Positions 9,775 to 29,795 of a stretch of DNA of 42,126 nt are shown piece by piece; the first letter of the stretch is position 1; every line of letters starts with the position of its first letter. The translations under genes were made by a program, and so were the position numbers. This stretch comes from a virus. Its lineage: Duplodnaviria; Heunggongvirae; Uroviricota; Caudoviricetes. The notes under the pieces are model-generated. The model did not search any database. It was not told the DNA's origin and worked only from the letters and a program-made list of their open reading frames with translations. Location of the stretch: the IMG/VR virus record IMGVR_UViG_2541047766_000003; one strand, given 5' to 3'.

Positions 9775-9783
9775 TGTGACATG

Positions 9784-10080
9784 TCACGTTCCTTTTCTGA
9801 ATGATAGCCGTTCGAAAAATGATGACATTCCACCGCAGACAATAGCAAAGATGATCCCACCAAAGAAGAGAAGGCCAGCCTGCCACCACTCCCACCGCCA
9901 TACATCCACAGCGCCAACCATACCAACAATCGCTCCAACAAATGGAATATAGCTCACGATGAAAGCAATGGGGGCTGCAATTATCCAGTGCAATCCCCAC
10001 CATGATTCAAGCCCAGCCATAATTGCTGCCAACTGAAAAAGACCAACGACGATATAAACAATGAATCCTATAGCTTGCAT
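9784..10080 (-). CDS. Small multi-TM membrane protein
   Basis: Three hydrophobic helices, Trp-rich. Confidence 0.55.
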   Translation of the reverse strand: MQAIGFIVYIVVGLFQLAAIMAGLESWWGLHWIIAAPIAFIVSYIPFVGAIVGMVGAVDVWRWEWWQAGLLFFGGIIFAIVCGGMSSFFERLSFRKGT

Positions 10081-10275
10081 GTAGTCACCTATTTACCCAG
10101 TAAAAATCAGAGGCCTCCCCTCAATAAGGCTTGCAACAAGAACTATTCCCTGCACAACAAAGATGAACCAGCAAATAGCTTGAGTCTGAGGGTTAAGAAA
10201 ATATTTGTAGCGGTCAATAAATAACAACCCACCAGAAATTATCACACTCAAAATAATTAAAAACACAACACTTCC

Positions 10276-12750
10276 TTATTGCGGAGTGACATCCTGAGGT
10301 CGCCACCAGTATGTCTGATTAAACTCTTTCTTCGAACGTTGCTCCATTTTGCGCAAATAGCCTGGTGAAAAATACTCCTGCATCTGGTTAAAGATCATGT
10401 GATCGAGAGCCGCCTTCAAGTACCAGAGATTCGCACCTGGCATCAAACCTTTCCCCAGTTTCACCAGATCACCTCCAGTCTGCTCACTCTTCCCTTCCAC
10501 AGCATTTAGCGGTATGCCCTGAGCAATCTTCACTACGTCATCAACCAGACCAGCTACCGGGCCAAGCATCGACGCCAGCGCGCCGCTTCCGTACCTAGTG
10601 TGATCTGACAATAAAAAGTCACCGTAAAGACCAAGACCACCACCTTTCAGTAGAGCACCAAGCCAGAATTTTGCGGCATCTTCTCCTGTCATCTCTCGAG
10701 GATTACGACCAGACGCAAGGTCGTTAAGTTGCTGCGACAAAGCGCCAAGAATGGTCGTACTGGCAATAAACGTCGCAATATATGCCGCACGACCACCAGC
10801 AGACGGCATACCCATAGCGCGTGACCAGTGACGCATAACAACCGAGATAGGGAACGATTTAAACAGGAAAACACTTCTCGTTAATTCACCTTTCCATGTT
10901 CCACGCTGAATACCAGAACCGGTTATCAGTTGCTCACGTGCTCCCGGTGTAATAACAGCCATATCAACTTCTTCAGTTACGGCACCGAGCAGTTTACGCA
11001 TTGCCTCAAATTTCACGCGTTCAGGCTCACCAAGATGTTTAACTGCTGAATCAGGGATACGCATAATGCTTTCCGGTGTCAGCATCGTATTATTACCGTT
11101 CCCCCAGTCCTCTTGTTGCGCCAGCTTCCATACGCTCCAGTCTGTGTCAGTAATCCCTTTGCTTTTCAGGATACGAAAATCAGAGTCATCGAGGCTACGA
11201 AGGTCTGGTGTCCGTGACACTACTTCTCCCAGGCTTCCCATCATAGTTACGCCATAGGCGCGCTTGTGCGCATCTGACCATGCTGTAAGCCCACTGGCAC
11301 GCATTACCGCCGTTGCCGCCCAACGAGACACAGACGGCCCCATATTATCCATCGCCCAGCGGTTAACGCTGCCAAGTAGAGATTCCATCGCCAGACCAGC
11401 GCGGCGCGCCCGCGCAAGTTCTGTACGGTTCGTTGGGTCCATAGCTTCAAGCTGGTTGCGGAATAACTGGTTCATTGGAAGGTTGGTAACCTTCGCAGAC
11501 AGATACATGGTTCCAAGGTCAGAGAACGATGACAGCAACGCGGATCCGAGTCTGCTGGCAACCAACCAGTTGCGGATATTGTCAGACCATCGCGCGATGT
11601 GCGGATTCGCTACAGGCTGTGTCTTTCCGGAAATAAAGTTGTACAGATTCTCTGTGTTGTTCGCCAGCCGCTCGACTTTACCGGTTTTACTCGGGTTAGC
11701 TGTTGCCGTTTCTGCCTTCACCTGATCAAGAAGAGAGCGGAAAACATGATCGGGGTTTGGGCCATATGTTTCCACCAGTGCAATATCTTTACTGATACCT
11801 TCAAGGTGACCGACCATGATTTCCCATAGAGAGCGATCGCCATAAAGTTGCTGATATTGCAGATAGGAATCTGCATCTTTGAAATGTATCTGTCGTGATG
11901 CATTACCACGGTTAGCACGTGCGCCGGAAATTCGCATTCCGGTATCAGTAAGCTTATTCAGCCCACCTGTAGCGATCGTGTTATAAGCCTCTCCAAGAAA
12001 TGCAGACAACTCGTCATCGTTCATCAGTTGTCCATCGGCTCGGGTATAATATTTGCGATCCAGCTTACCTATAACATCGCTAACCCATTTATCTTTTGAT
12101 ACCGCACCAACCTTTTCCATAGAATGATGTTGAGGGATCCCCCAGTTTTCGAGATAGCCAATGTCCCCACCAGCATCATTAAACCTGCGGCGGAGTAGAT
12201 CTGTCACTTCTCTCCACGCCTTAGCACCTTTTCTTGCTTTAGCATTGCCAGTATTTTGCCCTCGCATTTCATATACCAGGTCACGCACGCCAGCTTCATC
12301 TTCAAACAGGCCAAAAAAGCGAGGATCAACTGCTTCGAATGCCTCCTGCAATTGACTCAATGCATAATCACGAGTGGCTTTTGTTCTGGACTCAACAGAG
12401 AGGAAATTCGATTTACCGTCTGCATTAAAAGCAATAGTACGGTTAAGAGCGCCAAGTTTCCCATCAGCCCCTTGATAGCTATTGATAAATTTATCCAATC
12501 TCTGACGTGCAGCTATAGTGAGAGCCACACGACGTTTCTTTAATGCCGCTTCTCGCTGTAATTCTTCAGATGCCAATTGTGCTGCACGATACAGCCGCTC
12601 TGACTCGGAAAGTTGTCGCCACGACATAGGGTCATCACGAGCAATGGAGCGCATATTGCGATAAATGCGGTCTTCAATGTTCTGTATTTCTCGCGCCGTT
12701 AACGTGCGCTGCGCCGCCTTCTGGACCGCTTGTATACATTCCTGTCTCAT
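10276..12750 (-). CDS. Large virion/ejection (internal core) protein
   Basis: 824 aa, last of four consecutive large ORFs downstream of the gp11/gp12-like tail genes, as in podoviruses. Confidence 0.7.
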   Translation of the reverse strand: MRQECIQAVQKAAQRTLTAREIQNIEDRIYRNMRSIARDDPMSWRQLSESERLYRAAQLASEELQREAALKKRRVALTIAARQRLDKFINSYQGADGKLGALNRTIAFNADGKSNFLSVESRTKATRDYALSQLQEAFEAVDPRFFGLFEDEAGVRDLVYEMRGQNTGNAKARKGAKAWREVTDLLRRRFNDAGGDIGYLENWGIPQHHSMEKVGAVSKDKWVSDVIGKLDRKYYTRADGQLMNDDELSAFLGEAYNTIATGGLNKLTDTGMRISGARANRGNASRQIHFKDADSYLQYQQLYGDRSLWEIMVGHLEGISKDIALVETYGPNPDHVFRSLLDQVKAETATANPSKTGKVERLANNTENLYNFISGKTQPVANPHIARWSDNIRNWLVASRLGSALLSSFSDLGTMYLSAKVTNLPMNQLFRNQLEAMDPTNRTELARARRAGLAMESLLGSVNRWAMDNMGPSVSRWAATAVMRASGLTAWSDAHKRAYGVTMMGSLGEVVSRTPDLRSLDDSDFRILKSKGITDTDWSVWKLAQQEDWGNGNNTMLTPESIMRIPDSAVKHLGEPERVKFEAMRKLLGAVTEEVDMAVITPGAREQLITGSGIQRGTWKGELTRSVFLFKSFPISVVMRHWSRAMGMPSAGGRAAYIATFIASTTILGALSQQLNDLASGRNPREMTGEDAAKFWLGALLKGGGLGLYGDFLLSDHTRYGSGALASMLGPVAGLVDDVVKIAQGIPLNAVEGKSEQTGGDLVKLGKGLMPGANLWYLKAALDHMIFNQMQEYFSPGYLRKMEQRSKKEFNQTYWWRPQDVTPQ

Positions 12751-12755
12751 TTAAT

Positions 12756-14558
12756 TTAACCTCTCAAGAAACACGCCACAGCAACATCAAACAGGCTGGA
12801 ATCCTGTATTGCCTGCTCACTTTCCCTGTTAGCTTCATCCAGTACTTCACGCGCACTGCGCGATTGTGGATTACCATCATCATCCAGCACGGTGATTATC
12901 ATGTCAGGTGATTCAAGCAGCGAGTCTTCAGCTATACGCAGATCAATATCTCCTGCCGGATCTGCCATCATTTTTTGTTCTGTCTGTTGCAATATCTTAC
13001 CGGGCTCAAAAGGAGCTACTTCGTCTGGCGTCCTGACCTCTGCTGTTTTATAGAATGAAACAGCCTGAGCATTAAGTTCACTTTCTGCCTGCTGTCGCCG
13101 TGCCAGTTCTGCTCGAGCTTCAAAAAACTGACCTCCAGGCTCGTGCGGTGCCAACGCGTTACGGGAAAATTCCAGGCGTTCTTGTGCCTGCCGGATTCGT
13201 TGATCAATATCACGAAGTCTGGCCTGTTTATCTGATCGAGCACGAGACAAAGCTTTACCGCTACCGGTTGGCTCTTCTGCAAGAATTTGTGCACGCTGTT
13301 CAGTGAGATTTTCAATAATTCGTTGGCTATTAGCGATTTCAGACTGGTAAACCTGTCTATCTCCACGCGGCAAAAGCTGCGCGGCCTGTTCTTCAAGCAA
13401 CCGATTTTCTATAGCGCGCGCCGTTACTCCATCATCTACAGATGACAGAGCCTCATTAACTGCCTGAGACAGCAGACTCTTGCGCTCTGGAATTTCACTG
13501 AAAGATGCAGACTCAACAATGCTGGCAACGTCTACAGGTCTCCCCTGGCTAACATCAGACATAGCTTTTCGCAGAGCCTGAATGTGAGAATTGCGCGAAA
13601 GCACGTTGATCGGCACGCCGGGAGCAATATCAATTTCAGCATGATGAGCGGCATTCGCCGCCAGTGCAGCATCGACATCAACTGGTGAAAAATTTGGTGC
13701 GCTTGTAGACTCGCCGCGAGAGTTAATAAATCTGCCGACACCACCAAACGCCACCCCAAGAACAGCATCAATAGCAATTGCCTGTCGATCCAACACATCA
13801 TACTGGTTAGCCATTTCGCTATAGCCACCATCACGAAGCGTTTTTGCAGTAAGCCCACGCTGTGCCATACCGAACGCAATATTTGTACCTGCGGCATAGG
13901 CAATATCTGGCGTTGCACGTACTGCTGTTGCTGCGGCGCGTCGCACTGAACTCTCACCCGTCCGCGCGAGCTGAGCCGCCACACCTTCCGCCAGCGCACC
14001 ACCAGCACGTAACCCGAGGCTCATAGGGATCAATGTTCCGGCACCAGCAGTAATGCCCTGCACTAATCCCGCTTCCTGCGCTGTCCTGAAATCAACACCC
14101 TGTGCTGTCAGCCGTTCAAACTCAGAAAAACCCTGTAGCGAAGTTACCGCCGCTGCACCTCCGACCGGACCACCGAGCGTTGTACCGACAACAGCCTGCC
14201 CGCCCATATCGAACAACCCATAAAGAACCTGCCCTGCGGTTCCGGTTGTCGCGGCATCAGGCGTCAGCCGCTTAACCTGCTGCTCTGCTAGTTTTCTCTG
14301 CTCGGCAATGTATGAAACTGAAGTGTCATTGAGCGAGGTGTTTTCGTTAACAAACTGAGCAATCGGGGATACGATTTTATCCATCCCTGCCCATAGCAAC
14401 TGATCTGGCTTTGCCACCAGCCCGGAGTACAAACCAGACAATGCCGCTCCTACAGCATTGTCGAAAAAACCAACATCGCTGTTAAAGCCAGCTGGATTTG
14501 ATACTGCTTCGTCAAGCTGCTGATTCTGGTTTACTGGATTAAGGCCAAAGTAACTCAT
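12756..14558 (-). CDS. Virion/ejection protein
   Basis: 600 aa, Ala/Gly-rich N-terminal part, coiled-coil C-terminal part; operon position. Confidence 0.7.
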   Translation of the reverse strand: MSYFGLNPVNQNQQLDEAVSNPAGFNSDVGFFDNAVGAALSGLYSGLVAKPDQLLWAGMDKIVSPIAQFVNENTSLNDTSVSYIAEQRKLAEQQVKRLTPDAATTGTAGQVLYGLFDMGGQAVVGTTLGGPVGGAAAVTSLQGFSEFERLTAQGVDFRTAQEAGLVQGITAGAGTLIPMSLGLRAGGALAEGVAAQLARTGESSVRRAAATAVRATPDIAYAAGTNIAFGMAQRGLTAKTLRDGGYSEMANQYDVLDRQAIAIDAVLGVAFGGVGRFINSRGESTSAPNFSPVDVDAALAANAAHHAEIDIAPGVPINVLSRNSHIQALRKAMSDVSQGRPVDVASIVESASFSEIPERKSLLSQAVNEALSSVDDGVTARAIENRLLEEQAAQLLPRGDRQVYQSEIANSQRIIENLTEQRAQILAEEPTGSGKALSRARSDKQARLRDIDQRIRQAQERLEFSRNALAPHEPGGQFFEARAELARRQQAESELNAQAVSFYKTAEVRTPDEVAPFEPGKILQQTEQKMMADPAGDIDLRIAEDSLLESPDMIITVLDDDGNPQSRSAREVLDEANRESEQAIQDSSLFDVAVACFLRG

Positions 14559-17068
14559 TGCGGAATATCTCCGGAGAATCTCTGACGCTTCTGTGTCAGA
14601 TCAAGAACAACAGGAGAACCATCATCTTTCAGCAGATAACCAGTACCAAGTTTCACCAGATACTGACTATCGCCGTAACTTTGCAAACCATACTGACCAG
14701 GCGGTGTTTTTATCCCAGTGCCGACAACTTGTTCATTCCAAGCCTGATTAACCTGCTTATCGAATTGCTCTGCAGACATTCCCCACGGCAAAAGGACATT
14801 CCCCATTCCGTTATAGTCATGCACGCCACCTGTAGCTACGTTAACAGCCTGTTTCCAGGTATCAGTGTCAATTTCACCTGATATCACGCCTTTTTTCGCC
14901 ATCACACCAGCGTAATAGTCCTTTGCGATCTCGTATGCCATTGATGCCCCCTGAGCATCACCAGCAAATGCATCCTTCACCATGTCAGAAAACTCAAGGC
15001 GAAGATCAGCATCTTTAGGCATCGGAATACCTTTCGCATCATCAGTACCTTTACGAGCCGCCGCGCCAGCAAGAATTGTCTGCGCAGCGGTTTCAGGAGA
15101 CACGGAAACATCCGGATTAAACCAGTTTTTTTCTGCCAAAATACCACCAGGCTTGTCCATCAGTATCCCGGCAACGGCAGCAGATGGAGCGTTGGCACTG
15201 ATCTGCTGTAGTGCTGACATATACACCTGCCCACCACCAGTGCTCTGCCTGATGGTATCGAGATATGCTGCCTGTTGGGAAACTGGAGCATCACGAAAGA
15301 AAACACCGATCTGATTGGCCTCGTCTTTGGAAAAGAACGTCAGTGGAGTGCCATATGACTTAGCAAGGTCACTGACCTGAGCGGCACGCAAGGCAACGCT
15401 CTGTCCAAAGTTATCCTTATTGCTCATGTCGATAGGCTTTGTCTGTCCGGAGGCAAGAGAGAACTGCACAGGATCCGACTGCCGCTGCTTTATCACCTGA
15501 TTTGCAGCCGAAACAACGTTGTCATAAAGAGCTGCGCGTGCCGCATACCCCTCCCCTGTTTCACCAGTATCCGGGCGCAATTTCTCAACATATGCGGTAA
15601 TGCTGCTTGTCGGCATGTTGCGGAAAGAGCCTATATACTGTCCGGCGATCTGCGTATTTCTGAACTCGGTATATCGCAGGTTTCCTTCTCTGACGCCATA
15701 AGCTGCAATAAAATCATCCTCACCTGGTGGGTTAGGAAATTCAACGCCACGCATATACGCAGCCGTCGCATCGCGAACCCGGCTGTCGAGCATCGTTTTA
15801 TATTCAGCCTGCTGTTGTCTGGCTAGTGCATCAGTCTGTCGCAACACGCTGGCCTGATCTGATTCACTTAAAGCATCGAACCAGGCTACACCGGTATAAC
15901 GTTTATTTTTTGTCGGTAGCTGAGAAAGCCCCAGAGCAGCACTAACACCTGCAGTTAACTGCTGATCACTGTATGGCTGGCTACCGTTTTCATGATGGAT
16001 AATGGCTGCACAAAGCGCCTTCAGGGTATCAGGATTTGATGCATCGAGAGGCTCATCAGCAGAAACGCCAAGTTGTTCGCACACTGCTTTGATATACGAC
16101 ATAGTGTCATTTTTATCAGTAGGCGGTGCCCAGCGATTAATTATCTCGCTGACGGTATCAATACCCTGCCGCTGATACGACATCAGGTTCCGCCCTAATG
16201 CACGAATACCGTGTTCAGGGGTTTCGAATTTGGCAAAGCGACCATCATCACCAGTCTGCCCAACCCACGGATTAGTTTTGCTGTATTCAAGATTGCCGGG
16301 GTTATTGTTGCGTATACCGCGGGTACGATCGGAAGAGCCACTATCTGCTACAGCACGGCGAGATCCAGCAGCAGTATCGCTTAACTCGCCGTTTTGCTGT
16401 CTTACCTGAAGATAGTTTGCTCCAATAGCATTTTGAGCAGTTGCTTTTGCTGTTGCTTCTTTAAACTCGATTTTCTTGGCCTGGATTTGCTCGTCACTCC
16501 AGCCATGTGCAATGCCGTAATCCTCAATTTGCTGGAAAGTTTGCTTATTAGCCAATACGTATGCGACGTTGTCGCCATACAATGCTGCGGCATTTTTACC
16601 ATTGTTCAGCAGCGTAGCCTGAAACTGGCCTTCTTCGTAGGCATTTATTTGCCCTATCTCGTGCCGCCCTGCCTGCGTAGTGAACTGAATGCGCTGCTGC
16701 TGCGCCTGCTGCATGAAAGCATTACGAGCCTGTTCATCCGGCAGCGACATAGCCAGTTGTTCGACCTGAGCATCAAACTGCTGCGTATACTCCTGACCTT
16801 TTCCAATAGCATTTTTCCCTTTCAGGTTAAGCAATCCTGTTTCAGGATTATTCAGCAGATCACTGCTTATCTGACTGAGGTTAAGAGATGCCTCCTGAGC
16901 CAGAGCGATATTGGCACGCTGTTTTGCCTGACCAAAAACATCAATTGCCTCTGTCCCTGCCCGAACAAAAGCATCACCAATACCTGGCTGAGAAAACGTC
17001 TGCAAGCCTGCTGACTGAACTCCACGGCTCTGAACCTGACGGCCGGATACTGTTGGTACGACTGGCAT
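14555..17068 (-). CDS. Virion/ejection protein with GIRNNNPGN motif
   Basis: Start set at ATG overlapping upstream stop (TAATG) with RBS ggagg; the track ORF extends to 17143. Confidence 0.7.
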   Translation of the reverse strand: MPVVPTVSGRQVQSRGVQSAGLQTFSQPGIGDAFVRAGTEAIDVFGQAKQRANIALAQEASLNLSQISSDLLNNPETGLLNLKGKNAIGKGQEYTQQFDAQVEQLAMSLPDEQARNAFMQQAQQQRIQFTTQAGRHEIGQINAYEEGQFQATLLNNGKNAAALYGDNVAYVLANKQTFQQIEDYGIAHGWSDEQIQAKKIEFKEATAKATAQNAIGANYLQVRQQNGELSDTAAGSRRAVADSGSSDRTRGIRNNNPGNLEYSKTNPWVGQTGDDGRFAKFETPEHGIRALGRNLMSYQRQGIDTVSEIINRWAPPTDKNDTMSYIKAVCEQLGVSADEPLDASNPDTLKALCAAIIHHENGSQPYSDQQLTAGVSAALGLSQLPTKNKRYTGVAWFDALSESDQASVLRQTDALARQQQAEYKTMLDSRVRDATAAYMRGVEFPNPPGEDDFIAAYGVREGNLRYTEFRNTQIAGQYIGSFRNMPTSSITAYVEKLRPDTGETGEGYAARAALYDNVVSAANQVIKQRQSDPVQFSLASGQTKPIDMSNKDNFGQSVALRAAQVSDLAKSYGTPLTFFSKDEANQIGVFFRDAPVSQQAAYLDTIRQSTGGGQVYMSALQQISANAPSAAVAGILMDKPGGILAEKNWFNPDVSVSPETAAQTILAGAAARKGTDDAKGIPMPKDADLRLEFSDMVKDAFAGDAQGASMAYEIAKDYYAGVMAKKGVISGEIDTDTWKQAVNVATGGVHDYNGMGNVLLPWGMSAEQFDKQVNQAWNEQVVGTGIKTPPGQYGLQSYGDSQYLVKLGTGYLLKDDGSPVVLDLTQKRQRFSGDIPQ

Positions 17069-21871: not shown

Positions 21872-21872
21872 C

Positions 21873-22310
21873 TTAACCAGTTACTTTTGAGCGGATCGGG
21901 TACGGTGTATTGGCATCAACATCCAGACTGATACCCGCAGTGAATTTGCCGGCCGTTAGTGGGCCAGTTGCGACGGAGTAGTTAACACGCAGATATCGCT
22001 GAACACCGGCAGGCACCTTTGCAGAAACAACTCGTTTACCTGCTGTCAGGGTAGCCTTTGCCAGTGCGCCACTATCATAAATAGTGGACCATGAGCTGTT
22101 ATTCTCACTCGTCTGCAACTGGATGTTTACAGTTGCCTCACCACTTGCCGTGGCGGCTTCGTTAACCAGCACCCAAAACTCAAGCGGATAACCCACGCCG
22201 ATATCGCGACGGTTTCCATCAATTGGACCGAGATCGATTACGTCAGTAGAAGCCGCGGTATTCGTAACCGCCTGAGCTTCGGAGAACATCAACAGTTTGT
22301 CGGTGATCAT
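21873..22310 (-). CDS. Putative capsid decoration/cement protein
   Basis: 145 aa, beta-rich, immediately downstream of the major capsid gene. Confidence 0.55.
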   Translation of the reverse strand: MITDKLLMFSEAQAVTNTAASTDVIDLGPIDGNRRDIGVGYPLEFWVLVNEAATASGEATVNIQLQTSENNSSWSTIYDSGALAKATLTAGKRVVSAKVPAGVQRYLRVNYSVATGPLTAGKFTAGISLDVDANTPYPIRSKVTG

Positions 22311-22361
22311 CTTCTTTCTCCATTAGTGGGTCTGTTACGACCCACAGGTTAATAACAGGCG

Positions 22362-23354
22362 TTACACCACGCGGGCTTCTGTTTCCAGAAGCGCATCAGT
22401 TTCACGGATTGGTACACCACGGAATGAAGTCCACCACTCGCCTTCTGTCTCTTTTACGCTGATCGCCAGAGATGTTTTCTCCAGAGATTGCAGATCAAGA
22501 GCCTGGCCTACAGTGCGGTTCATGTAGAACACCGGGCGGCCCATGCCACGGTTTGGAATGCGATGCAGTGCTTTAACCATCAACTTCGCAATATTTGCGG
22601 CAGAGGAAGGTTCTGAAAGATTGCTGACATCGATGTTTGCAATGCGAACAACATAACGCCAGTCACGCAGAGCAAGTCCGTTGTCCCATTTGTAATGGGT
22701 GCGATAGCCTTCGTACTTGCCGCCATTAGCATCTTCCAGTGTCACCTGGCCTTTATCTTCCATCTGGATGCCAGCCTTCTGCCCTTTCGGGAAGATGCCA
22801 TGCACGGTGTTTTCGCCCCACACCACTAACCAGATTGAGGTGTTATCTGTACCCGTGCCACCAGCATCAATGATGTTCTGAGCATTACCCGCAGACAGGC
22901 TGGAATAGCGGGAGGACAGTCCCATAAACTGCTGAGGGTTAACGCTGGAATCACCATAAAACAGCGTCTGCGCCATCTGCTGATTCATCGCTTCAATAAA
23001 TGCGCGGTCTTCAGACAGGCGGAATTCAGCGGTATTGCCGTTCAGATCAGCCAGTGACTTATCGACTTCAGCATAGGTTTCCAGCATGCCAACGGAATCG
23101 GTTACCTGCACTGTGGTTGATTTGCTTGGCTGTACGCCATAGTTCAGCAAACGCCAGGTAGCTGAAGGTAAACCAGAACGAATGGTGGTTCGGTGTCCGG
23201 TAGGAAGGTTCCCTTCGACAAAAGGCATATCCTGAAGGATCGGGTTAGTTTGACCGAGAAGCTCGATAATCTTATCGACTTTCCCGTTTGGATCGACGCG
23301 CTTACCCCAGTCAGCCAGCGTTAGCGCAGTTAAGCCTTTAACAGCCATTGTCAT
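22362..23354 (-). CDS. Major capsid protein
   Basis: 330 aa following the scaffold gene; size matches epsilon15/BPP-1-type capsid proteins as recalled. Confidence 0.75.
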   Translation of the reverse strand: MTMAVKGLTALTLADWGKRVDPNGKVDKIIELLGQTNPILQDMPFVEGNLPTGHRTTIRSGLPSATWRLLNYGVQPSKSTTVQVTDSVGMLETYAEVDKSLADLNGNTAEFRLSEDRAFIEAMNQQMAQTLFYGDSSVNPQQFMGLSSRYSSLSAGNAQNIIDAGGTGTDNTSIWLVVWGENTVHGIFPKGQKAGIQMEDKGQVTLEDANGGKYEGYRTHYKWDNGLALRDWRYVVRIANIDVSNLSEPSSAANIAKLMVKALHRIPNRGMGRPVFYMNRTVGQALDLQSLEKTSLAISVKETEGEWWTSFRGVPIRETDALLETEARVV

Positions 23355-23362
23355 TTCCTCTC

Positions 23363-24064
23363 TTATTTGCCATAGAGCACTTCGGCCGCACTACGCTGGC
23401 CTTCATTACCACCGGTGACCATGCCATCTTCAGACATCGCCTTTCCGATTTTCACGAACGTTTTGACCAGATCAGGGTGATTACCCAGCCCGGTGGTGTT
23501 CAGATATTCTTTGAGTTCAGGTGTCCCGAACTGGTCAAGCGCACGCTGTGCGGCGCTAAGGTTATAAATCAACTTGTCGCCACCGATTTCTTTGTCAGCT
23601 TTTACATCCGCAGCCCACTGCTCGGTTGTTTTCTGCCAGGCTTCTGCCTGGCGCTGCTGAACACCTGCCAGAATCTTCGGATAAGCATCAACCAGCTTTT
23701 GCGCTTGCTCGTTGGTCAGGTTAAGTTCTCGCGCCACCGGCTCGAATTCCTTCAACGCTTCTGTATCCAGCTCTACGCCTTCGGCAGCCTGAAACTCGTA
23801 CTTCTCAGGCGCACCCTCTGGTTTATCGCCGTCCTTTTTTTCATCCTGCTTATCGTTTTCAGGCTTTTTGTCATCAGCAGGTTTATCGCCATCAGCAACA
23901 GGTTGTGGCTTATCACCTTCCTGTTGTGATGGATCACCAACTGGAGCAGGGTTATCACCTGCAGGCGCTGACGGTTCTGACGCAGCCGGAGCTGCTCCAC
24001 CATCGACTGGTTGCTCATTGCAAAGACGGCGATACAGCAAACGCTCAAATAAATTCATGATCAC
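23363..24064 (-). CDS. Scaffolding protein
   Basis: Acidic, Pro/Asp/Lys-rich low-complexity N-terminal half and helical C-terminal half, between portal and capsid genes. Confidence 0.7.
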   Translation of the reverse strand: MIMNLFERLLYRRLCNEQPVDGGAAPAASEPSAPAGDNPAPVGDPSQQEGDKPQPVADGDKPADDKKPENDKQDEKKDGDKPEGAPEKYEFQAAEGVELDTEALKEFEPVARELNLTNEQAQKLVDAYPKILAGVQQRQAEAWQKTTEQWAADVKADKEIGGDKLIYNLSAAQRALDQFGTPELKEYLNTTGLGNHPDLVKTFVKIGKAMSEDGMVTGGNEGQRSAAEVLYGK

Positions 24065-24357
24065 TCCTGTTCACTGGCCTCTTTGGCCATCTTCAAATAC
24101 TGTTCAGGGCAATGCGCCATAACGCGCTGAAACAGTTCCAGCGCCAGATTGCGTTGCCCCTCATTAAATGCCATTGCCATAGCGTCCATCGGTGAGATAG
24201 CGGAAAACACACGGCCTTTCTCCAGCACCGACCAGACAACGCGACGCCCATGTTCACTGCTCATGACAAAGCGAATGTCATCAATTTCACGCTGTGCCAT
24301 GTCACGTTGCTTACTGGCGCTTTCTTCTTTCAGTTGATCGTCTTCGTAATCTGTCAT
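24061..24357 (-). CDS. Small acidic protein between portal and scaffold
   Basis: 98-aa ORF overlapping neighbours by 4 nt. Confidence 0.5.
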   Translation of the reverse strand: MTDYEDDQLKEESASKQRDMAQREIDDIRFVMSSEHGRRVVWSVLEKGRVFSAISPMDAMAMAFNEGQRNLALELFQRVMAHCPEQYLKMAKEASEQE

Positions 24358-26033
24358 TGTGATTGCCCACCCTGACCACTAACTGCATTCGCCATAGCTG
24401 ACAAAACACTCGGATCCGAAGTTTTAGCTTCGCTTAGCGTTTTGGCACCCTGTGCCGCCGCCATCCCCATCGCCATCATTTGTTGCTGCTGTTGCTGCTG
24501 TGCCCGTTGCTGGCGAGCCTGCTCAACCTGTTCCTGCGGAACAATGACGGTTGGAGACACTCCGGACATATCAGCGAATGCATCGATCGCCTGATCAACG
24601 TTGAGTTTGTCGAGAGCTTCTGGTTTCGCTTGCGCAAGTTGACCAATGAAGTTGACCGTAGACGCCAGACTGGACAAGCCGATAGACTTCTGCGCCTGAG
24701 CCATGACGGAAATGTATTCGACCTTCAGGGGCATACCTTCCATCGCGTCAGGCGGTGGCGGCAGCATGTTTTTACGCACCATCATCGAGAAAGCGCGGTC
24801 AATGAGAGGATTAAGACATTCGTCGTTCAGACGCTCCAGAACCGGCCCCAACATCAGAAGTTTTTCTTCTTTCATTTCGATCACCGCTTCAACAGGCATC
24901 GAGCGGGTATTGATGTTCTGCAACATCATGAACAGATCGACAAAGTAGGCGCTGTTAATGATTTGACGAGTGTCCTGAATGTCTGCTACCAGATCTGCTG
25001 TACTGGGGTTAACCAGATAAGCAGGCCTGAAACCATCCTGACCAGTAATCTGATCGATATACGTGATGTCGCCAGGAAGAAGGGAGGCGCGCTGATTCTT
25101 GAGGGAAGTCGGAGCAACCATCGGCGGATTGGTGGCTTTATCAATCAACTGCGACTTGCGCTTCTGGAGAAGTTGCAATGCCTTAACAGGTCCAAGCGCC
25201 AGCATACCCGGGCATGATGATCCATAAACATCTTCGCCGTTAACTTCCCAGCGCGGAGCCATAATTGGAAACTCATCGAATCCGGACTCACGCAACAACT
25301 TGTCGTTATCGCCACCAACCTCGTAATAAACCGATTTGAATGGCTTGTTCTTGCTATCCAGCTTCGATGTATCGCGGTCAATGTTCGGGTAAACCGAATG
25401 CATCACTTCAATCCACTTCTCGTAGGTGCCGCTTTCCCACATGCTTTTTACGGATTCGCTGACGTTATTTAGCCCGAACTCCTGAACAAGCTGACGAACA
25501 GTCATAGAGAACTTGCGGAAACAGGTGTCCACACTGCCACGAGGTGAGTTAGCCAGGTAGTAACTGCCTATAGGGAATGGCATTGTGCGAATGATGTCCT
25601 CGTCATCCTCCAGCACCGCCATTGCACCAGTGCTGTATGTGCCGAGGCTTCCGTATAACTGCGGCAGCGACTGATAGAGATTCGACTTATTGAACATATC
25701 GTTCATGCGGTTCTGCACCGCCTCAAGCCACAACTTAACAGGGCCATAATCCATCATTTCAGGATCTGGCGTAGCCAGGCGAAACCACGGACGCGCGGGG
25801 CTTGTGATGCCTGACATCATGCCGCTGGCGAGAGTGCGCGCCGCCATAGTCCCGGTCGAATCAATAATGCGTGTATTGCGTCGATCGTTACGGTTGACCT
25901 CAGAAGTCAGAAAGCGGGAACCACGCGGGTTGATGTAATCACTCAACTCGCGCCAGTGCGGCTCGAACGACTGACGCTCGCTTTCAAGTTGTGCGAACTG
26001 TTTGTTCAATCGCTCTTTAGTTGTTTCCGCCAT
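24354..26033 (-). CDS. Portal protein, T7 gp8-like head-to-tail connector
   Basis: 559 aa; C-terminal QQRAQQQQQQQMMAMGMAAAQGA tail and central TNPPMVAPTSLKNQRASLLPGD resemble T7 gp8 as recalled. Confidence 0.85.
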   Translation of the reverse strand: MAETTKERLNKQFAQLESERQSFEPHWRELSDYINPRGSRFLTSEVNRNDRRNTRIIDSTGTMAARTLASGMMSGITSPARPWFRLATPDPEMMDYGPVKLWLEAVQNRMNDMFNKSNLYQSLPQLYGSLGTYSTGAMAVLEDDEDIIRTMPFPIGSYYLANSPRGSVDTCFRKFSMTVRQLVQEFGLNNVSESVKSMWESGTYEKWIEVMHSVYPNIDRDTSKLDSKNKPFKSVYYEVGGDNDKLLRESGFDEFPIMAPRWEVNGEDVYGSSCPGMLALGPVKALQLLQKRKSQLIDKATNPPMVAPTSLKNQRASLLPGDITYIDQITGQDGFRPAYLVNPSTADLVADIQDTRQIINSAYFVDLFMMLQNINTRSMPVEAVIEMKEEKLLMLGPVLERLNDECLNPLIDRAFSMMVRKNMLPPPPDAMEGMPLKVEYISVMAQAQKSIGLSSLASTVNFIGQLAQAKPEALDKLNVDQAIDAFADMSGVSPTVIVPQEQVEQARQQRAQQQQQQQMMAMGMAAAQGAKTLSEAKTSDPSVLSAMANAVSGQGGQSQ

Positions 26034-26047
26034 TTCAATGACTCCGG

Positions 26048-26254
26048 TTACTGACCAAGTAGCGTTTTACCGCTGGTATTAGCGGTTGATGTGTCGCCCT
26101 GAGAACCGGTAAGCAGCGTAGAACTACGACCAGCAGCAGCGCGACGGCGACGTGTTTCTTCGTCGCGGGCATCAACAACGGCGGCATCCTGCTCCTGTGG
26201 TGCTGCCTGAACTTCTGGTGTTGCAGGCACTGATGGTGAGCTACCCATGCACAT
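26048..26254 (-). CDS. Small hypothetical protein upstream of portal
   Basis: 68-aa ORF with ggag RBS; frame choice uncertain. Confidence 0.3.
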   Translation of the reverse strand: MCMGSSPSVPATPEVQAAPQEQDAAVVDARDEETRRRRAAAGRSSTLLTGSQGDTSTANTSGKTLLGQ

Positions 26255-26322
26255 ATCAATGACTCCGTACGCAATTAAATTATTACCAATTTAACCACAT
26301 ATGATTTATTTATCGTAGGCAG

Positions 26323-26359
26323 TTGACATTTAACGCACGAATTATTACCTTTCAGGTAA
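26323..26359 (+). promoter_or_regulatory. Promoter-like TTGACA plus operator palindrome TTACC-TTTCA-GGTAA
   Basis: Architecture parallels pL (ttgacat...attattacc...ggtaa); faces the tRNA/Gp49 islet. Confidence 0.45.
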
Positions 26360-26681
26360 GTAAATAGTTCATTCCGGTTATTAACCTGACTGGCTTGTCG
26401 TTAAATTGAACAGGTGGAGTGAGCTTTTATTTTGAGCAGTACGGCGTATGGCACATGCGCCGATAGCGGTCTGGATACGTTTAAGGGGCACCCTCCCTTG
26501 CTCGGGCAAACGAACCAGGTAGCCGGAATGTGCAAGTCGAGCGGTTTTATTCCGCGCACGGGGATTCACCATCCCGGCGATTCGGTGTGACACCTCGGAA
26601 GAGACGAGGGTGCAACGATGAGAGCATTTATGGAGCCGCGACAAAGTGTGGCGCCTTAACAGGCTAAGTGCTCTCAGCGTT

Positions 26682-26758
26682 GTGGCATTAGCTCAGTTGG
26701 ACAGAGCAACCGCCTTCTAAGCGGTTGGTCGCAGGTTCGAATCCTGCATGCTACGCCA
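26682..26758 (+). tRNA. tRNA-Arg (anticodon TCT)
   Basis: Cloverleaf folded by hand: acceptor GTGGCAT/ATGCTAC, D-stem GCTC/GAGC, anticodon stem ACCGC/GCGGT with loop CTTCTAA, T-arm GCAGG-TTCGAAT-CCTGC, encoded CCA. Confidence 0.85.
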
Positions 26759-26801
26759 GAATCACGCCTAATGACCGTGATGCCAGAAGTTCCAGGTGCT
26801 T

Positions 26802-26845
26802 GGCGGTGATGGTTTCCCTTGAAGGACTATCACCGCCCTTTTTAC
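26802..26845 (+). terminator. Rho-independent terminator after the tRNA
   Basis: 9-bp stem ggcggtgat/atcaccgcc followed by ctttttac. Confidence 0.6.
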
Positions 26846-26921
26846 AGCAGGACGCCATTGCGATGACTTCATGCTGTAAACCAGTACAGCCACGGAAGGC
26901 AGAACTCATTGCTTCCAGTTC

Positions 26922-26946
26922 GCCCGGTTCGCCGGGCATTTTTTTA
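26922..26946 (+). terminator. Terminator/attenuator hairpin directly upstream of the Gp49-like gene
   Basis: gcccgg-ttcg-ccgggc followed by attttttt; RBS aaggtgag follows. Confidence 0.55.
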
Positions 26947-26956
26947 AGGTGAGATT

Positions 26957-27328
26957 ATGAACGACCAGCAAATCGAAAAAGAAATCGTTGAGAAAGGCAA
27001 AACGGCACCGCGCGTTACGCCAGACCATATCGAAGGCATTATTGCTCAGGAGGCATATTTCACAGCAGAAGATGGTGCCTTTGGCAAAGCCATAAAAGCG
27101 AAACATACTGGCGGAGAGGTAAACTACCAGCCGCACGAATCACTTTCTCTGCTGACGTTCTGCGTCCTGGTGCTGCGCAACGGCTTCACCGTCACCGGAG
27201 AGAGCGCCTGTGCAAGCCAGGAAAACTTTGATGCAGAAATTGGTCGGAAGATTGCCCGGCAGAATGCTGTAAACAAAATCTGGATGCTCGAAGGTTACTT
27301 GCTGAAGCAGAAGCTAAGCGAGCAATAA
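26957..27328 (+). CDS. Gp49-like phage protein (Phage_gp49_66-type), unknown function
   Basis: 123 aa; ...LLTFCVLVLRNGFTVTGESACASQENFDAEIGRKIARQNAVNKIWMLEGY recalled as this family; opposite strand to flanking late genes. Confidence 0.6.
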   Translation: MNDQQIEKEIVEKGKTAPRVTPDHIEGIIAQEAYFTAEDGAFGKAIKAKHTGGEVNYQPHESLSLLTFCVLVLRNGFTVTGESACASQENFDAEIGRKIARQNAVNKIWMLEGYLLKQKLSEQ

Positions 27329-27348
27329 CACCGTGACATGTCACAAAC

Positions 27349-27376
27349 AGCCAGCCGATGAGCTGGCTTTGTTTTA
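27349..27376 (+). terminator. Rho-independent terminator after the Gp49-like gene
   Basis: agccagc-cgatga-gctggct followed by ttgtttta. Confidence 0.7.
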
Positions 27377-27418
27377 TCCTCATCAGAGGATATCAACGAC
27401 ATTATCCCCACCAGCGGA

Positions 27419-28894
27419 TTAAGCATATGGATCGTAATCTGTGATGGCCTTGCCTTGCTGGTTCTGCTGCCCGGGAATTCGCAGACGCTTCGACACAGGG
27501 AACGCAAACGTCAGCAGTAGCGCATCGCCTTTACCAGGAGAACGCCCAAGCCGCTCCTTGATATCTTCCTTCGGTTCGATAACAATTTTACCGTCCACTC
27601 GAACTTTGTACTCTGCCGCAGACAGGTCGTCCGCTGTTTCCTGGTCATCCAGCATGCCGCCCAGCCTCAGCCATGTCTTGCATGAGTTGAACATCTCCCC
27701 ACGCTTGTTGAACATCTGCGGGTCAGTAGACGCGCCACCGAACGGAACAAGTTGCCATGTACGACCCCAGCCATCACCGATTGACTTCAGACCAGTTCCG
27801 TAACCGAAGTCGATGAACACTGCGTCAGCCTGGTACTGGTCTTCAAAGTCAGCGATACGCTTCGCCATAATCAGATCGTCAGTGGTCTTGTTGCCAGTCC
27901 ACAGCACCTTACTGTGCAGCCCCTGCCGCAGGTATATCACAGCGTCATCAACGCCGGAGTATGCCGGGTCAACGCCGATTATCACCGGAGCATGTGCAAC
28001 CTGCGCAGCGGTTACCACCCGTTTCATTGCCTCGTCAGTAAGGCCGGTAGGGATAAACTGCAATTCAGATGCATCCGGGAATATGCCGCGCACACGGATT
28101 TTAACGAAGTCGCTGTCTTCCCCGTAGTCATCAACCCATTTCTGCAACTGCTGTTTGTTAGTGCCTTCCACCGTCCGGCTGTCAATCTGCGCAGTTTTCC
28201 AGCGGTGTTTATATTTGCGGAAACATTCGCGGAAACGTCCGGTATTACGCGTCGGGTTTCCGAACGCCACCCAGATAATCTCAGTGTCTTCGTCCGTCAG
28301 CGCACCCTCTGCTACCTCCCACACCAGATCGGCAATGTTGGATGCTTCGTCGAATACCACGATGATGCGTTTGCGCTCGTTGTGTAGTCCGGCGAATGCC
28401 TCAGTGTTGTGCTCAGACCAGGGGATTGCGTCAGCTCGCCACCGCTTGTCGTGCCCAGGGTCATTGCTGTACATCGCGGTAGCGGTACAGGTAAACCAGT
28501 CTTTCGTGATAGCAAGGTTTGACCACTTGATAATTTCCGGCCAGGTCTTCGTTCGTAGCTGGTTGTCGGTGTTGGCGGTCACCACGACCTTACAATCCTC
28601 GCAAGTGGACATGCCCCAGTTGATCAACATTGAGATGAATGCTGATTTACCAATACCGTGACCCGAAGCACGTGCCAGCATAAGCGGCTGATAACGCGTC
28701 TCTGGATTCTGCAGGTGATCACGTATCTCTCGGAACGCATCGGCCTGCCACTGACGTGGACCGGTAGCATGTGCCAGTTCAGTCCCCTCTTCCCCCCAAG
28801 GGAACGCATAGAGGGCATAGCCAAGCGGATCGTGAGTGAACCCTGCAATATCTTCGATTAACTGCTCTTCAGGAGATAACGCTGCATCTGTCAC
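27419..28894 (-). CDS. Terminase large subunit
   Basis: 491 aa; Walker A-like GHGIGKS, ATPase and nuclease halves; follows the small subunit with 4-nt overlap. Confidence 0.9.
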   Translation of the reverse strand: MTDAALSPEEQLIEDIAGFTHDPLGYALYAFPWGEEGTELAHATGPRQWQADAFREIRDHLQNPETRYQPLMLARASGHGIGKSAFISMLINWGMSTCEDCKVVVTANTDNQLRTKTWPEIIKWSNLAITKDWFTCTATAMYSNDPGHDKRWRADAIPWSEHNTEAFAGLHNERKRIIVVFDEASNIADLVWEVAEGALTDEDTEIIWVAFGNPTRNTGRFRECFRKYKHRWKTAQIDSRTVEGTNKQQLQKWVDDYGEDSDFVKIRVRGIFPDASELQFIPTGLTDEAMKRVVTAAQVAHAPVIIGVDPAYSGVDDAVIYLRQGLHSKVLWTGNKTTDDLIMAKRIADFEDQYQADAVFIDFGYGTGLKSIGDGWGRTWQLVPFGGASTDPQMFNKRGEMFNSCKTWLRLGGMLDDQETADDLSAAEYKVRVDGKIVIEPKEDIKERLGRSPGKGDALLLTFAFPVSKRLRIPGQQNQQGKAITDYDPYA

Positions 28895-29487
28895 TGATTA
28901 CCATCCTGACGTTCTTTGAGTCGCTTCCTGGCTGCTGCTATGCGATCAGCAATTGTCACATTCACATTAACATCCAGGCGTTCTTTGAATGCGTTGACGT
29001 CGACGTGCTTACCAATCAGTTCGAGGTTCTTCACCTTGTCAGGCCATTTAATTTTTTTGAGGATTGTCTCTATCGAATCCTCGTTCATGTTCATGATGGT
29101 CGATGACAGATCAAAGCCACTAAGCGTAGTGCGCCAGATTTTCGGCCACTCACGGATTGGTTTAAGGCTCCCATCGTCGTTGAGGATGTCGATCACGTCC
29201 ATCTGGTCGATCTCCACCAGGCGCATGAGAACGTAATCAGCACTGACGCGCATTCGTTTGTTGCGCTCCTCCATCAACTCGGCAATCCGTTTTTGAATGC
29301 GTTCATCGCGCATCATGACACTGGCTTTAACTGCCGCTGTATTTGGGGAGAATCCTGCGTTAATCGCTGCCTGAGTCTGGTTTTCAGGCGTTTTGATGTA
29401 TGACTGGCAATAAGCCTCCTGCATTGCTGTTAGTGGCTTAAATTGCGTTGATTTGCGTTTATAGGTTTTAGGTTCAGCAGGCATCAT
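28891..29487 (-). CDS. Terminase small subunit (start uncertain; the open frame runs to 29565)
   Basis: Terminase_2-like ...FKPLTAMQEAYCQSYIKTPENQTQAAINAGFSPNTA...; start set at the internal MMPAEP because the upstream 26 codons translate a DNA tandem repeat. Confidence 0.7.
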   Translation of the reverse strand: MMPAEPKTYKRKSTQFKPLTAMQEAYCQSYIKTPENQTQAAINAGFSPNTAAVKASVMMRDERIQKRIAELMEERNKRMRVSADYVLMRLVEIDQMDVIDILNDDGSLKPIREWPKIWRTTLSGFDLSSTIMNMNEDSIETILKKIKWPDKVKNLELIGKHVDVNAFKERLDVNVNVTIADRIAAARKRLKERQDGNQ

Positions 29488-29561
29488 AACCACCGTGGTA
29501 ATAGTTACCGTTGTGGTAATAGTAACATGCAAAATAAAGCCGCCATAGTTGGCGGCAGCAT

Positions 29562-29795
29562 TCAAAGTCCATCAAATTCATCGTAAAAACTCTCGTCAAG
29601 ATACCCTTCCCATTTACCGCGAATGAAAATTACATCCTCACCGCAAGGGTGCTGACTGTCGATAACTATATCCCTCCTGGCGCAACCATACTTGTGCATA
29701 AGAAATTTAACCTCTTTCGGAAAATTTGCTGAGTTATCTCTCATATCTTCAAGGTCGTAGCGTATTTTTGGCATAACACCTTCGTGACATGTCAC
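29562..29795 (-). CDS. Hypothetical small protein
   Basis: 77-aa ORF; ATG lies inside the GTGACATGTCAC palindrome. Confidence 0.5.
   Translation of the reverse strand: MTCHEGVMPKIRYDLEDMRDNSANFPKEVKFLMHKYGCARRDIVIDSQHPCGEDVIFIRGKWEGYLDESFYDEFDGL

Follow-up and report, generated by a model that had tools for sequence, protein, structure and literature searches.

A strictly conserved palindrome in a prophage genome is most likely the predicted binding site of a gp49-like protein

Sequence comparison indicates that a palindrome repeated three times in the prophage described here is a real, strictly conserved DNA signal, and that it is most likely the predicted binding site of a small gp49-like protein encoded in the same genome. 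We consider it somewhat better than an even bet that the palindromes serve as operators of this protein (29792-30130, minus strand), which would act there on elongating RNA polymerase at operon boundaries.

Results

Three copies of a palindrome at the ends of transcription units

The window, by which we mean the whole stretch of DNA analyzed (42,126 nucleotides), carries an epsilon15/phiV10-type prophage. The 12-mer GTGACATGTCAC occurs in it as exactly three exact copies (Table 1), at the positions reported in an earlier note, whose expectation of about 0.003 copies per window is reproduced by a first-order Markov model; a chance origin was rejected on these numbers. Under the same model, GTGACNNGTCAC is expected 0.031 times in the window (Poisson P for at least three copies, 5e-6), and GTGACATGTCAC is the only palindromic 10-mer or 12-mer that is repeated there. 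The 14-mer that had been described for the last two copies is indeed present in both but is not restricted to them, since copy 1 has CGTGACATGTCACA in its opposite-strand form. Identity between the three copies ends at 14 bases, and a fragment of a longer repeat was rejected accordingly. The one-mismatch copy in Table 1 is also present at the homologous place in phiV10.

Table 1. Coordinates of the palindrome copies and neighboring features in the window
Feature	Position	Strand	Context
Intrinsic terminator hairpin AGGCCGCTTTCGCGGCCT, then TGTTTTT	9758..9775	minus	0 nt past copy 1, in the direction of late transcription
Copy 1 (site B)	9776..9787	none	End of the virion-gene operon, converging with the antirepressor island
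One-mismatch copy GTGCCATGTCAC	24294..24305	none	Inside head-gene coding region
Gp49_66-family gene	26957-27328	plus	Convergent with the large terminase gene
Copy 2 (site A)	27333..27344	none	Between the 3' end of the large terminase gene and the Gp49_66-family gene
Terminator hairpin AGCCAGCCGATGAGCTGGCT, then TTGTTTT	27349..27368	plus	4 nt past copy 2
Large terminase gene	27419-28894	minus	
Intrinsic terminator ending the early-right operon	29539..29559	minus	Followed by repressor-type operators and the small terminase gene
70-aa accessory gene, phrog_1541	29562..29774	minus	Inserted between copy 3 and the next terminator
Copy 3 (site C)	29784..29795	none	Upstream of the small terminase gene
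Candidate binding protein, 112 aa, phrog_536	29792..30130	minus	Homologs: epsilon15 gp49, phiV10 p55, N15 gp46, ZF40 gp22

The three sites mark the 3' ends of consecutive transcription units, namely, the early-right operon, the terminase genes, and the virion genes, and none of the three lies at a promoter. Their neighborhoods are those named previously: the end of the antirepressor (accessory) island for copy 1, the end of the tRNA-Arg/Gp49_66 islet beside the large terminase gene for copy 2, and, for copy 3, the junction of two small genes that precede the small terminase gene. Copies 1 and 2 directly abut terminator hairpins between convergent genes. Copies 1 and 3 hold a TGA stop codon in the same palindrome register, copy 1 that of a 98-aa gene at 9784-10080(-) (stop at 9786-9784, minus strand) and copy 3 that of the gp49-like gene, the last in the early-right operon (stop at 29794-29792, minus strand). 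Copy 3 had been thought to contain a start codon but is not the source of that of the downstream 70-aa gene; this accessory gene, missing from phiV10 and epsilon15, starts at an ATG at 29774. The palindrome itself was rejected as an intrinsic terminator, as it has no T-run and a stem of 4 bp at most.

Conservation and consensus of the site

Related phages at the homologous junctions, where the earlier note had suggested looking, carry GTGACATGTCAC at the same places. The exact 12-mer is found at all three homologous positions in epsilon15, SPN1S, Tyrion, and the Klebsiella phage Kp4865-1, while phiV10 has two exact copies and one with a single mismatch; at the place of copy 1, the 12-mer is identical in phiV10, epsilon15, SPN1S, and Tyrion. 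At homologous places, identity is 100% in the motif versus 44 to 80% in the flanks. Copy 2 shows no change in any of 13 diverse relatives, where flank identity is 0.80 and 0.56, and the exact motif of copy 3 lies on or beside the stop codon of the gp49-like gene in 77 of 80 close relatives and in most distant ones. The terminase-side site was missing at the expected distance in 23 of 75 close relatives.

The wider consensus is a symmetric 14-mer, YGTGAC-NN-GTCACR. The half-sites are invariant in all 76 sites surveyed, and variation is confined to the central two bases, which differ by subfamily (AT, TG/CA, GC, AC, or CT), with an AT center in every epsilon15-type site. Of 152 half-sites, 98% have a pyrimidine at the outer flanking position, a sign that the site is recognized with two-fold symmetry. 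The motif is also kept inside conserved coding sequences, including a cII-like gene and the start of a Q-like gene, and the exact DNA motif is present in all seven phrog_2479 genes, which share 33 to 100% amino acid identity. This last pattern suggests selection on the DNA itself and action within transcription units. A scan of IMG/VR for the 14-mer returned 120 loci; these are contig fragments, so that absence of the gp49-like gene from 74 of them is uninformative. Some high-GC contigs have arrays of GTCACGC repeats around the motif and look like a different, iteron-type system.

The motif travels with a gp49-like gene

Seven unrelated motif-bearing genomes were compared with the window, and the gp49-like open reading frame is the only one of the window's frames that has a homolog in each of them. 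The unrelated phages ZF40, N15, and Vibrio K303, which have a homolog, also carry two to three sites each: the myovirus ZF40 carries three exact copies, one of them 3 nt past the gp22 stop codon; N15 carries three copies of the form GTGAC(TG/CA)GTCAC, one on the stop codon of gene 46; and K303 carries three motif copies within 24 kb. The per-genome Poisson P value for most gene-carrying genomes is 1e-5 to 1e-8. A P2-like Yersinia phage has one site, and lambda and P22, both without a gp49-like gene, have none. An Aeromonas phage with a 30%-identical homolog showed no GTGACNNGTCAC in the 22.9 kb examined.

A protein scan of IMG/VR gave close relatives only (96 to 100% identity), and diversity came from a scan of GTDB. 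Among 34 GTDB prophage loci picked by protein similarity alone (38 to 82% identity), 33 contain the motif, with 51 sites in 632 kb versus 0.6 expected, and a site lies within 60 nt of the gene end in about 24. In most loci with a homolog, including those whose protein is as little as about 35% identical, the TGA stop codon falls inside the motif. Part of the association between gene and motif is physical linkage, because one site overlaps the gene. The pair is found in epsilon15/phiV10-type podoviruses, ZF40-type myoviruses, N15-type linear plasmid prophages, and many lambdoid prophages.

A predicted ribbon-helix-helix-like protein

The gp49-like protein consists of an N-terminal ribbon-helix-helix (RHH)-like domain and a conserved Cys-rich C-terminal part. 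Its structure model, built from 58 sequences after an earlier 31-sequence model (pLDDT 63) was discarded as too poor, has a beta-alpha-alpha fold similar to solved RHH (Arc/MetJ/CopG) proteins. In RHH proteins, an N-terminal beta-strand pairs across the dimer and forms the ribbon that reads the DNA; the segment RKLEIVLD (about residues 22 to 29) has the alternating pattern of such a strand and is coil in the monomer model. RHH-fold proteins bind DNA as dimers, and by analogy the model leads us to expect binding as a symmetric dimer. Searches with the sequence found no family in Pfam at an E value of ≤0.01 and no match in PDB; the sole curated-family match was the NCBIfam "LexA regulated protein" PRK11675 (E value of 0.004 to 0.07, far below the cut-off), so that Pfam, PDB, and NCBIfam gave no significant match to a curated RHH sequence family. 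A TraR/DksA-like zinc finger was rejected, its profile match being nonsignificant (E value of 0.16) and its cysteine spacing different. The literature found contains no paper on the 12-mer, the wider motif, or the gp49-like protein.

From co-occurrence and the structure model, we infer that the gp49-like protein binds the palindrome. The suggestion in the earlier note of a site for a dimeric protein thus gains support, at the level of sequence and model, from the conservation, symmetry, and fixed half-sites of the motif, its co-occurrence with the gene, and the RHH-like model.

Site contexts across phages

Across phages the contexts of the sites are mixed and include the gene's own stop codon, positions beside a terminator, the interior of coding sequences, and positions near a start codon or -35 element. 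A GC-rich hairpin with a T-tail lies within 8 nt of 20 of the 76 sites, versus 2% of random positions. In Klebsiella-type phages and N15, sites are located 6 or 25 bp upstream of -35 elements. A classic promoter-proximal activator site was rejected, given that the distance to the nearest promoter varies from ∼48 bp (Klebsiella-type) and 66.5 bp (N15) up to hundreds of base pairs.

Alternative explanations for the motif

A host protein such as MatP or SlmA might bind the sites and tie the phage DNA to chromosome-organization or division systems. matS is GTGACRNYGTCAC, 13 bp long with a 3-bp spacer, and the SlmA site is GTGAGTACTCAC. The phage half-sites GTGAC/GTCAC are the same as in matS, the outer GTGA...TCAC and the 12-bp length resemble the SlmA site, and MatP, itself an RHH protein, is among the fold matches of the gp49-like model. 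However, matS was rejected, as the phage motif has a 12-bp core with a 2-bp spacer in 76 of 76 sites and departs from the matS consensus; the central bases are unlike those of the SlmA site; lambda and P22 infect the same hosts and are without sites; and the motif tracks a phage gene across Vibrio, Pectobacterium, Yersinia, and Escherichia. The phage sites also differ from matS in their location, namely, the ends of operons and the stop codons of genes in phage DNA. MatP, the organizer of the Escherichia coli Ter macrodomain, combines an N-terminal helical bundle, an RHH domain, and a C-terminal coiled coil; the 112-aa gp49-like protein appears to be without the bundle and has a Cys-rich C-terminal part instead, and the two sequences match at a nonsignificant hhalign E value of 0.68. 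We regard recognition by a host protein as improbable. A CRP/FNR-type site, TGTGA-N6-TCACA, was likewise rejected, as GTGA and TCAC are 4 bases apart here, not 6.

We give little chance to an RNA element, that is, a 3'-end hairpin or protein-recognition sequence upstream of a terminator that affects termination, processing, or stability. Copies 1 and 2, like many copies elsewhere, are transcribed and precede a terminator hairpin by 0 to 8 nt, and a start codon follows 9 to 19 nt downstream of copy 3 of the window, the N15 gene 46 site, and two K303 sites. An RNA stem would tolerate covariation, whereas the half-sites are fixed in 76 of 76 sites with no compensatory changes, and around a 2-nt center the longest stem that can form is 4 bp, with a loop of 4 nt. 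Recognition of duplex DNA would account for the symmetry of the pyrimidine/purine flanks and for a partner protein with a DNA-binding fold. At the Rfam gathering threshold, a scan of the whole window found STnc490, isrK, C4, and tRNA only, with no family at the three palindromes.

The sites might instead be signals for DNA processing or exchange: microhomology linkers, targets of moron insertion, or packaging or nuclease sites near the terminase genes. One flank is conserved and the other variable at every site, and accessory genes differ between relatives, which bears out that part of the previous suggestion of mosaic junctions; copies 2 and 3 also bracket the terminase genes, and one K303 site precedes the small terminase gene by 19 nt. 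As a primary function, the linker is unsupported. Conserved coding sequences that lie far from any terminase gene also retain the motif in ZF40, N15 (a cos phage), and lambdoid prophages; it co-occurs with the RHH gene alone and not with any recombinase or nuclease gene; 12 bases are very short for homologous exchange; and accessory genes cluster beside terminators anyway. The chance of such a role is slim. Modification of the embedded ACATGT or CATG by a phage MT-A70-type adenine methylase is very improbable indeed: the AT center is kept in every epsilon15-type site and the phiV10 and epsilon15 homologs are annotated as adenine methylases, but, against this idea, other subfamilies have a different central dinucleotide (TG/CA, GC, AC, or CT) while the half-sites outside ACATGT stay invariant, and the target of a methylase would not be limited to three sites of 12 to 14 bp.

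Discussion

Operators of the gp49-like protein are our preferred interpretation of the palindromes. We propose that the gp49-like RHH protein binds YGTGAC-NN-GTCACR as a symmetric dimer, with YGTGACATGTCACR as its predicted target duplex. One site lies at or beside the stop codon with which the protein's own gene ends, and the others are spread over the genome. Once bound, the dimer may act as a roadblock or insulator, making termination tighter or modulating it, and may feed back on its own transcript, like LacI at O3, and the outcome would be that early, late, and antirepressor transcription are kept apart. It is the position of the sites that suggests such a roadblock or insulator: they lie at operon ends beside terminators rather than at promoters, so that they probably control read-through there. 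The reason for making a boundary factor from the very operon that it bounds is not obvious.

LacI bound to O3 at the end of lacI, as Abo et al. reportedly described in 2000, blocks polymerase within its own transcript and so provides feedback on its own synthesis. The likeness lies in an operator into which the coding sequence of its own regulator extends at the 3' end, as is seen here. LacI differs in being a helix-turn-helix tetramer with its main operator at a promoter, whereas no promoter-proximal main operator is evident in the phage system; the phage site still overlaps the stop codon in homologs of only about 35% protein identity, and roadblocking by the gp49-like protein is a proposal. 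In autoregulation of the LacI-O3 kind, polymerase halted by the bound regulator gives truncated products that are tagged by tmRNA.

The operators of the prophage repressor offer a comparison within the same genome. The epsilon15 record has seven annotated repressor sites with the sequence ATTACC-N5-GGTAAT, of which the window has 11 copies versus 0.04 expected; as these differ in sequence and lie at other positions, the palindrome was rejected as a prophage repressor operator. Both are palindromic families dispersed over one genome, but the Rep operators (epsilon15/SPC32H-type) lie at promoters, upstream of the small terminase, portal, tail-fiber, antirepressor, and early genes, whereas the GTGAC palindrome lies at 3' ends and terminators.

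Arc and Mnt of P22 and ArtA of pSK41, small RHH regulators of the kind that occupies a single short operator as one dimer, resemble the gp49-like protein in size and fold class. The site of the ArtA RHH dimer is contained within a 12-mer duplex, and the protein regulates several dispersed promoters (PMC2777438). The operators of these three proteins overlap -35/-10 elements, and the proteins are without a Cys-rich C-terminal domain. The one bacterial match to the 10-mer core in the literature found was the ArtA operator of pSK41, a chance match; the ArtA consensus, within GACATGACATGT, is unrelated to the palindrome but for this chance overlap. Antiterminators of the Q and N type share with the gp49-like system a gene at the distal end of an early operon, before a terminator and the late genes, and a DNA site that precedes a terminator. 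They differ in that the phage sites have no fixed position relative to a promoter or pause site, and there is no sequence or fold similarity. An equivalent of the late antiterminator Q is unlikely, since ZF40 and N15 encode a separate Q-like protein.

A broader proposition, which we hold to be doubtful, is that gp49/gp46 and YGTGAC-NN-GTCACR represent a new and widespread DNA-anchored boundary control, or else a phage counterpart of MatP/matS that would fold or bridge the phage chromosome or shield it against SMC-type complexes. If boundary control is true, an RHH-plus-zinc protein loaded just before intrinsic terminators, on the stop codon of its own gene, and within early genes would determine whether RNA polymerase halts or continues at the end of an operon, which would make it a factor for site-specific termination or antitermination with no relation to N, Q, Nun, or RfaH. 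The identity of the half-sites with those of matS raises the question of how host MatP and the phage system are related.

Temperate phages of Enterobacterales and Vibrio commonly carry a candidate pair of regulator and operator, which sequence comparison alone has brought to light. The placement of the sites at stop codons, at terminators, and inside early genes points to transcription control across operon boundaries, a poorly understood layer of phage gene regulation. With a protein of 112 aa and a site of 14 bp, the pair is small and could serve as an orthogonal DNA-binding module. In the phages themselves, the sites may bear on the insulation of antirepressor genes and hence on the decision between lysis and lysogeny.

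A repeated palindrome in a Uetakevirus prophage

The window, whose virion genes are encoded by the minus strand, is a nearly complete epsilon15/phiV10-type prophage of the genus Uetakevirus. It shares 96-98% identity over long stretches with the E. coli phages phiV10, TL-2011b, phiv142-3, and HEMP4 and ~80% identity with the Salmonella phages epsilon15 and SPN1S. The three copies of a 12-bp palindrome described in an earlier note were confirmed: GTGACATGTCAC occurs exactly three times, against 0.003 copies expected under a first-order Markov model (0.031 for GTGACNNGTCAC), and the same window statistics give a probability of 5e-6 for at least three copies. It is the sole palindromic 10-mer or 12-mer repeated within the window. 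The asymmetric 14-mer CGTGACATGTCACA, previously assigned to copies 2 and 3, is shared by these two but is not restricted to them, as copy 1 carries it in the opposite strand. Copy 3 had been thought to contain a start codon; the ATG of the next gene lies at 29774, and what copy 3 contains is the TGA that ends the upstream 112-aa gene. The TGA stop of a 98-aa gene lies inside copy 1 in the same register.

Palindrome copies and associated features of the window
Feature	Position	Strand	Context
STnc490 (Hfq-binding sRNA), strong Rfam match	1687-1810	-	Near window left end and prophage-host junction
ATTACC-N5-GGTAAT	6578-6594, 7697-7713, 7790-7806, 8842-8858, 26344-26360, 29486-29520, 33979-33995, 36372-36388, 37084-37100, 37146-37162		Upstream of terminase, portal, tail-fibre, antirepressor, and early genes
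isrK and C4 antisense RNA (Rfam)	7842-7917 and 7942-8027	+	Upstream of antirepressor gene
Antirepressor gene	8075-8770		
Terminator hairpin	9775-9758	-	0 nt from copy 1
Copy 1 (site B)	9776-9787		Past final virion-operon gene, toward convergent antirepressor island
98-aa gene	9784-10080	-	
tRNA-Arg (anticodon TCT)	26682-26758	+	Small islet between portal-side genes and Gp49_66-family gene
Two terminator-like hairpins	26802-26837 and 26922-26937		Flanking, in tRNA-Arg islet
Gp49_66-family (PF13876) gene	26957-27328		Ends 4 nt before copy 2
Copy 2 (site A)	27333-27344		Between large terminase gene and convergent accessory gene
Terminator hairpin	27349-27368	+	Copy 2 lies 4 nt before
Terminator	29559-29539	-	After copy 3, beyond inserted 70-aa gene
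Copy 3 (site C)	29784-29795		End of last early-right operon gene; small terminase gene downstream
gp49-like gene (112 aa)	29792-30130	-	
Replication gene	34876-35691	-	
ATCCCGTTTTTGGG, three copies at 24-bp period	35288-35431		Within replication gene; fourth partial copy at ~35418

The isrK/C4 pair lies upstream of the antirepressor gene, and the antirepressor island therefore has small-RNA control of ant of the P1 immI/N15 immA type. The ATCCCGTTTTTGGG repeats look like origin iterons.

Co-occurrence with a gp49-like gene

The gene ending in copy 3 is assigned to PHROG family 536, labeled "transcriptional regulator," and its gp49-like product has no Pfam match. Homologs are encoded by all Uetakeviruses, the Pectobacterium myovirus ZF40 (gp22, 67% identity), P2-like Yersinia phages, N15 and phiKO2 (gp46, 35%), and Vibrio and Aeromonas phages. 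In ZF40, whose virion genes are unrelated, whose early region resembles that of lambda, and which encodes a Q gene of its own, TGTGACATGTCACA occurs exactly three times: 3 nt past the gp22 stop, within a cII-like gene, and within gp08. N15 has three copies of GTGAC(TG/CA)GTCAC, located at the gene 46 stop codon, between the repA operon and the antirepressor locus, and within repA, and Vibrio phage K303 has three copies in 24 kb, with GC or AC centres. No sites were found in lambda or P22, and, as the one exception among homolog-bearing phages, the motif was not found in the 22.9 kb examined of an Aeromonas phage whose homolog is 30% identical.

A protein-profile scan of one genome per bacterial species recovered 34 loci with 38-82% identity, and GTGACNNGTCAC is present in 33 of these profile-selected loci (51 sites in 632 kb versus 0.6 expected). 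A site lies within 60 nt of the gene end in ~24 of the 34, mostly with the TGA stop within the motif. Among the window ORFs, only the gp49-like gene is represented by a homolog in each of the seven unrelated motif-bearing genomes tested. The P2-like Yersinia phage vB_YenM_42.18 (L130) carries its gp49-like gene (8028-8318) just upstream of a large gene (8621-11239) annotated as a Smc-like chromosome partition protein, and its sole motif copy (11708) is just downstream of the latter.

Conservation of the DNA word

The search of related phages proposed in the earlier note recovered the motif at homologous places: the 12-mer occupies the same three positions in epsilon15 (2142, 19517, and 39612), SPN1S, and Enterobacter phage Tyrion, and two of the three are recognisable in Klebsiella phage Kp4865-1. 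phiV10 (DQ126339.2) has two exact copies and, at site C, the one-mismatch form GTGACATGTTAC across the ends of the record, which is cut within the motif. This phage does not have the 70-aa gene of the window, and the TTG annotated as the start of its small terminase gene, which takes in the upstream terminator, is probably placed too far upstream. In alignments anchored on the motif and limited to genomes and loci chosen independently of it, the 12 motif bases are 100% conserved versus a mean identity of 0.44-0.80 in the 30-base flanks. The exact motif is kept on the stop codon in 77 of 80 close relatives picked by protein similarity.

Across 76 distinct sites the half-sites are invariant and the central dinucleotide is AT in ~78%, and the base outside the half-site is a pyrimidine in 98% of the 152 half-sites. 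This makes the element 14 bp long with two-fold symmetry, YGTGAC-NN-GTCACR. All seven phrog_2479 genes (ZF40 gp08 and those of six prophage loci from Serratia, Symbiopectobacterium, Enterobacter, Citrobacter, and Rosenbergiella) keep the exact DNA motif within the coding sequence, where it encodes Cys-Asp-Met-Ser, with amino-acid identities among them of only 33-100%. cII-like genes likewise keep it, as does the beginning of a Q-like gene. This retention inside coding sequences indicates that selection acts on the DNA word itself. In five high-GC IMG/VR contigs (L026, L045, L055, L074, and L112), the 12-mer occurs amid dense GTCACGC/GTGAC repeat arrays in coding sequence; these arrays resemble origin iterons in a replication gene and may belong to a different system with the same half-site.

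A candidate binding protein and competing identities

The gp49-like family shows invariant Arg, Glu, and Cys positions, four conserved cysteines of the C-terminal third among them. A first structure model was poor (pLDDT 63), and a second, built from 58 sequences of three subfamilies, reached pLDDT 78.8, with values of ~90 or more over residues 30-70. Sequence-profile searches with the protein gave no significant match; hhalign pairs the ribbon-helix-helix (RHH) segments of the family and MatP without significance. The assignment of an RHH fold is reasonably supported by the model. Proteins with this fold dimerise obligately and recognise palindromic DNA. A 12-mer duplex is enough to contain the site specified by a single dimer of the RHH protein ArtA (PMC2777438). 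The earlier suggestion of a dimeric protein binding site thus agrees with the symmetry, the conservation, and the co-occurrence with one RHH gene; binding itself we infer, and the copies are rather likely to be sites of the gp49-like protein.

Several known identities were rejected. Seven sites in the epsilon15 record are annotated as repressor-binding and read ATTACC-N5-GGTAAT; the operators of the major repressor are therefore a separate system. The window contains 11 matches to this sequence, each with one mismatch at most (0.04 expected), at promoters, which suggests that the prophage repressor directly controls many of them. A CRP-type site is ruled out by spacing. matS, the 13-bp site of host MatP, has half-sites identical to those of the phage motif but a spacer of 3 bp rather than 2 bp.

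The broader alternatives are that a host protein binds the motif, that it is an RNA element (Rfam found no RNA family at the three sites), that it is a recombination or packaging signal, or that it is a methylation target. All four are disfavoured by specific observations, and none accounts for the fact that the motif accompanies one RHH gene in otherwise unrelated phages.

Position of the sites and proposed action

A GC-rich hairpin with a T-tail lies within 8 nt of 20 of the 76 sites in the unbiased set, versus 2% of random positions, among them sites in independent contexts from Serratia, Rosenbergiella, and Samsonia prophages. There is no constant distance between sites and promoters. Several sites border antirepressor loci: copy 1 marks the 3' end of the isrK/C4-controlled antirepressor operon, and in N15, which has the same isrK/C4 pair at 28301-28489(-), a GTGAC palindrome lies 66.5 bp upstream of the transcription start of the corresponding operon. 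These terminator-adjacent positions, not fixed relative to promoters, favour an elongation-blocking dimer. Bound at operon boundaries, the gp49-like protein would act on the elongating polymerase, serving as roadblock or insulator. It would also exert feedback on the transcript that encodes it, for which LacI at O3 offers a model. Drawn from the position of the sites, this action is our leading but tentative proposal.

Klebsiella-type relatives (loci L007 [12697], L009, L027, L038, L099, L213, and L218) have a near-consensus promoter (TTGACT...TATACT) directly past site C, which is 6 bp upstream of its -35 element; loci L225-L227 have the same kind of arrangement past the gene's end. The Klebsiella-type promoter overlaps a LexA box (CTGT-N8-ACAG), which suggests an SOS-controlled gene inserted at this junction, probably an antirepressor. 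Gp49_66-family genes directly adjoin a motif copy in two unrelated contexts, in the window and in an Enterobacter prophage (L222, 15591), where the gene starts ~30 nt past the motif.

We found no published paper with the 12-mer or the gp49-like protein family. Phage regulators that bind palindromic operators are of a familiar kind. What is unusual here is how the system is laid out and where it appears to act: the half-sites match those of matS, one proposed operator covers the stop codon of the regulator gene itself, and others adjoin terminators or lie within early genes.
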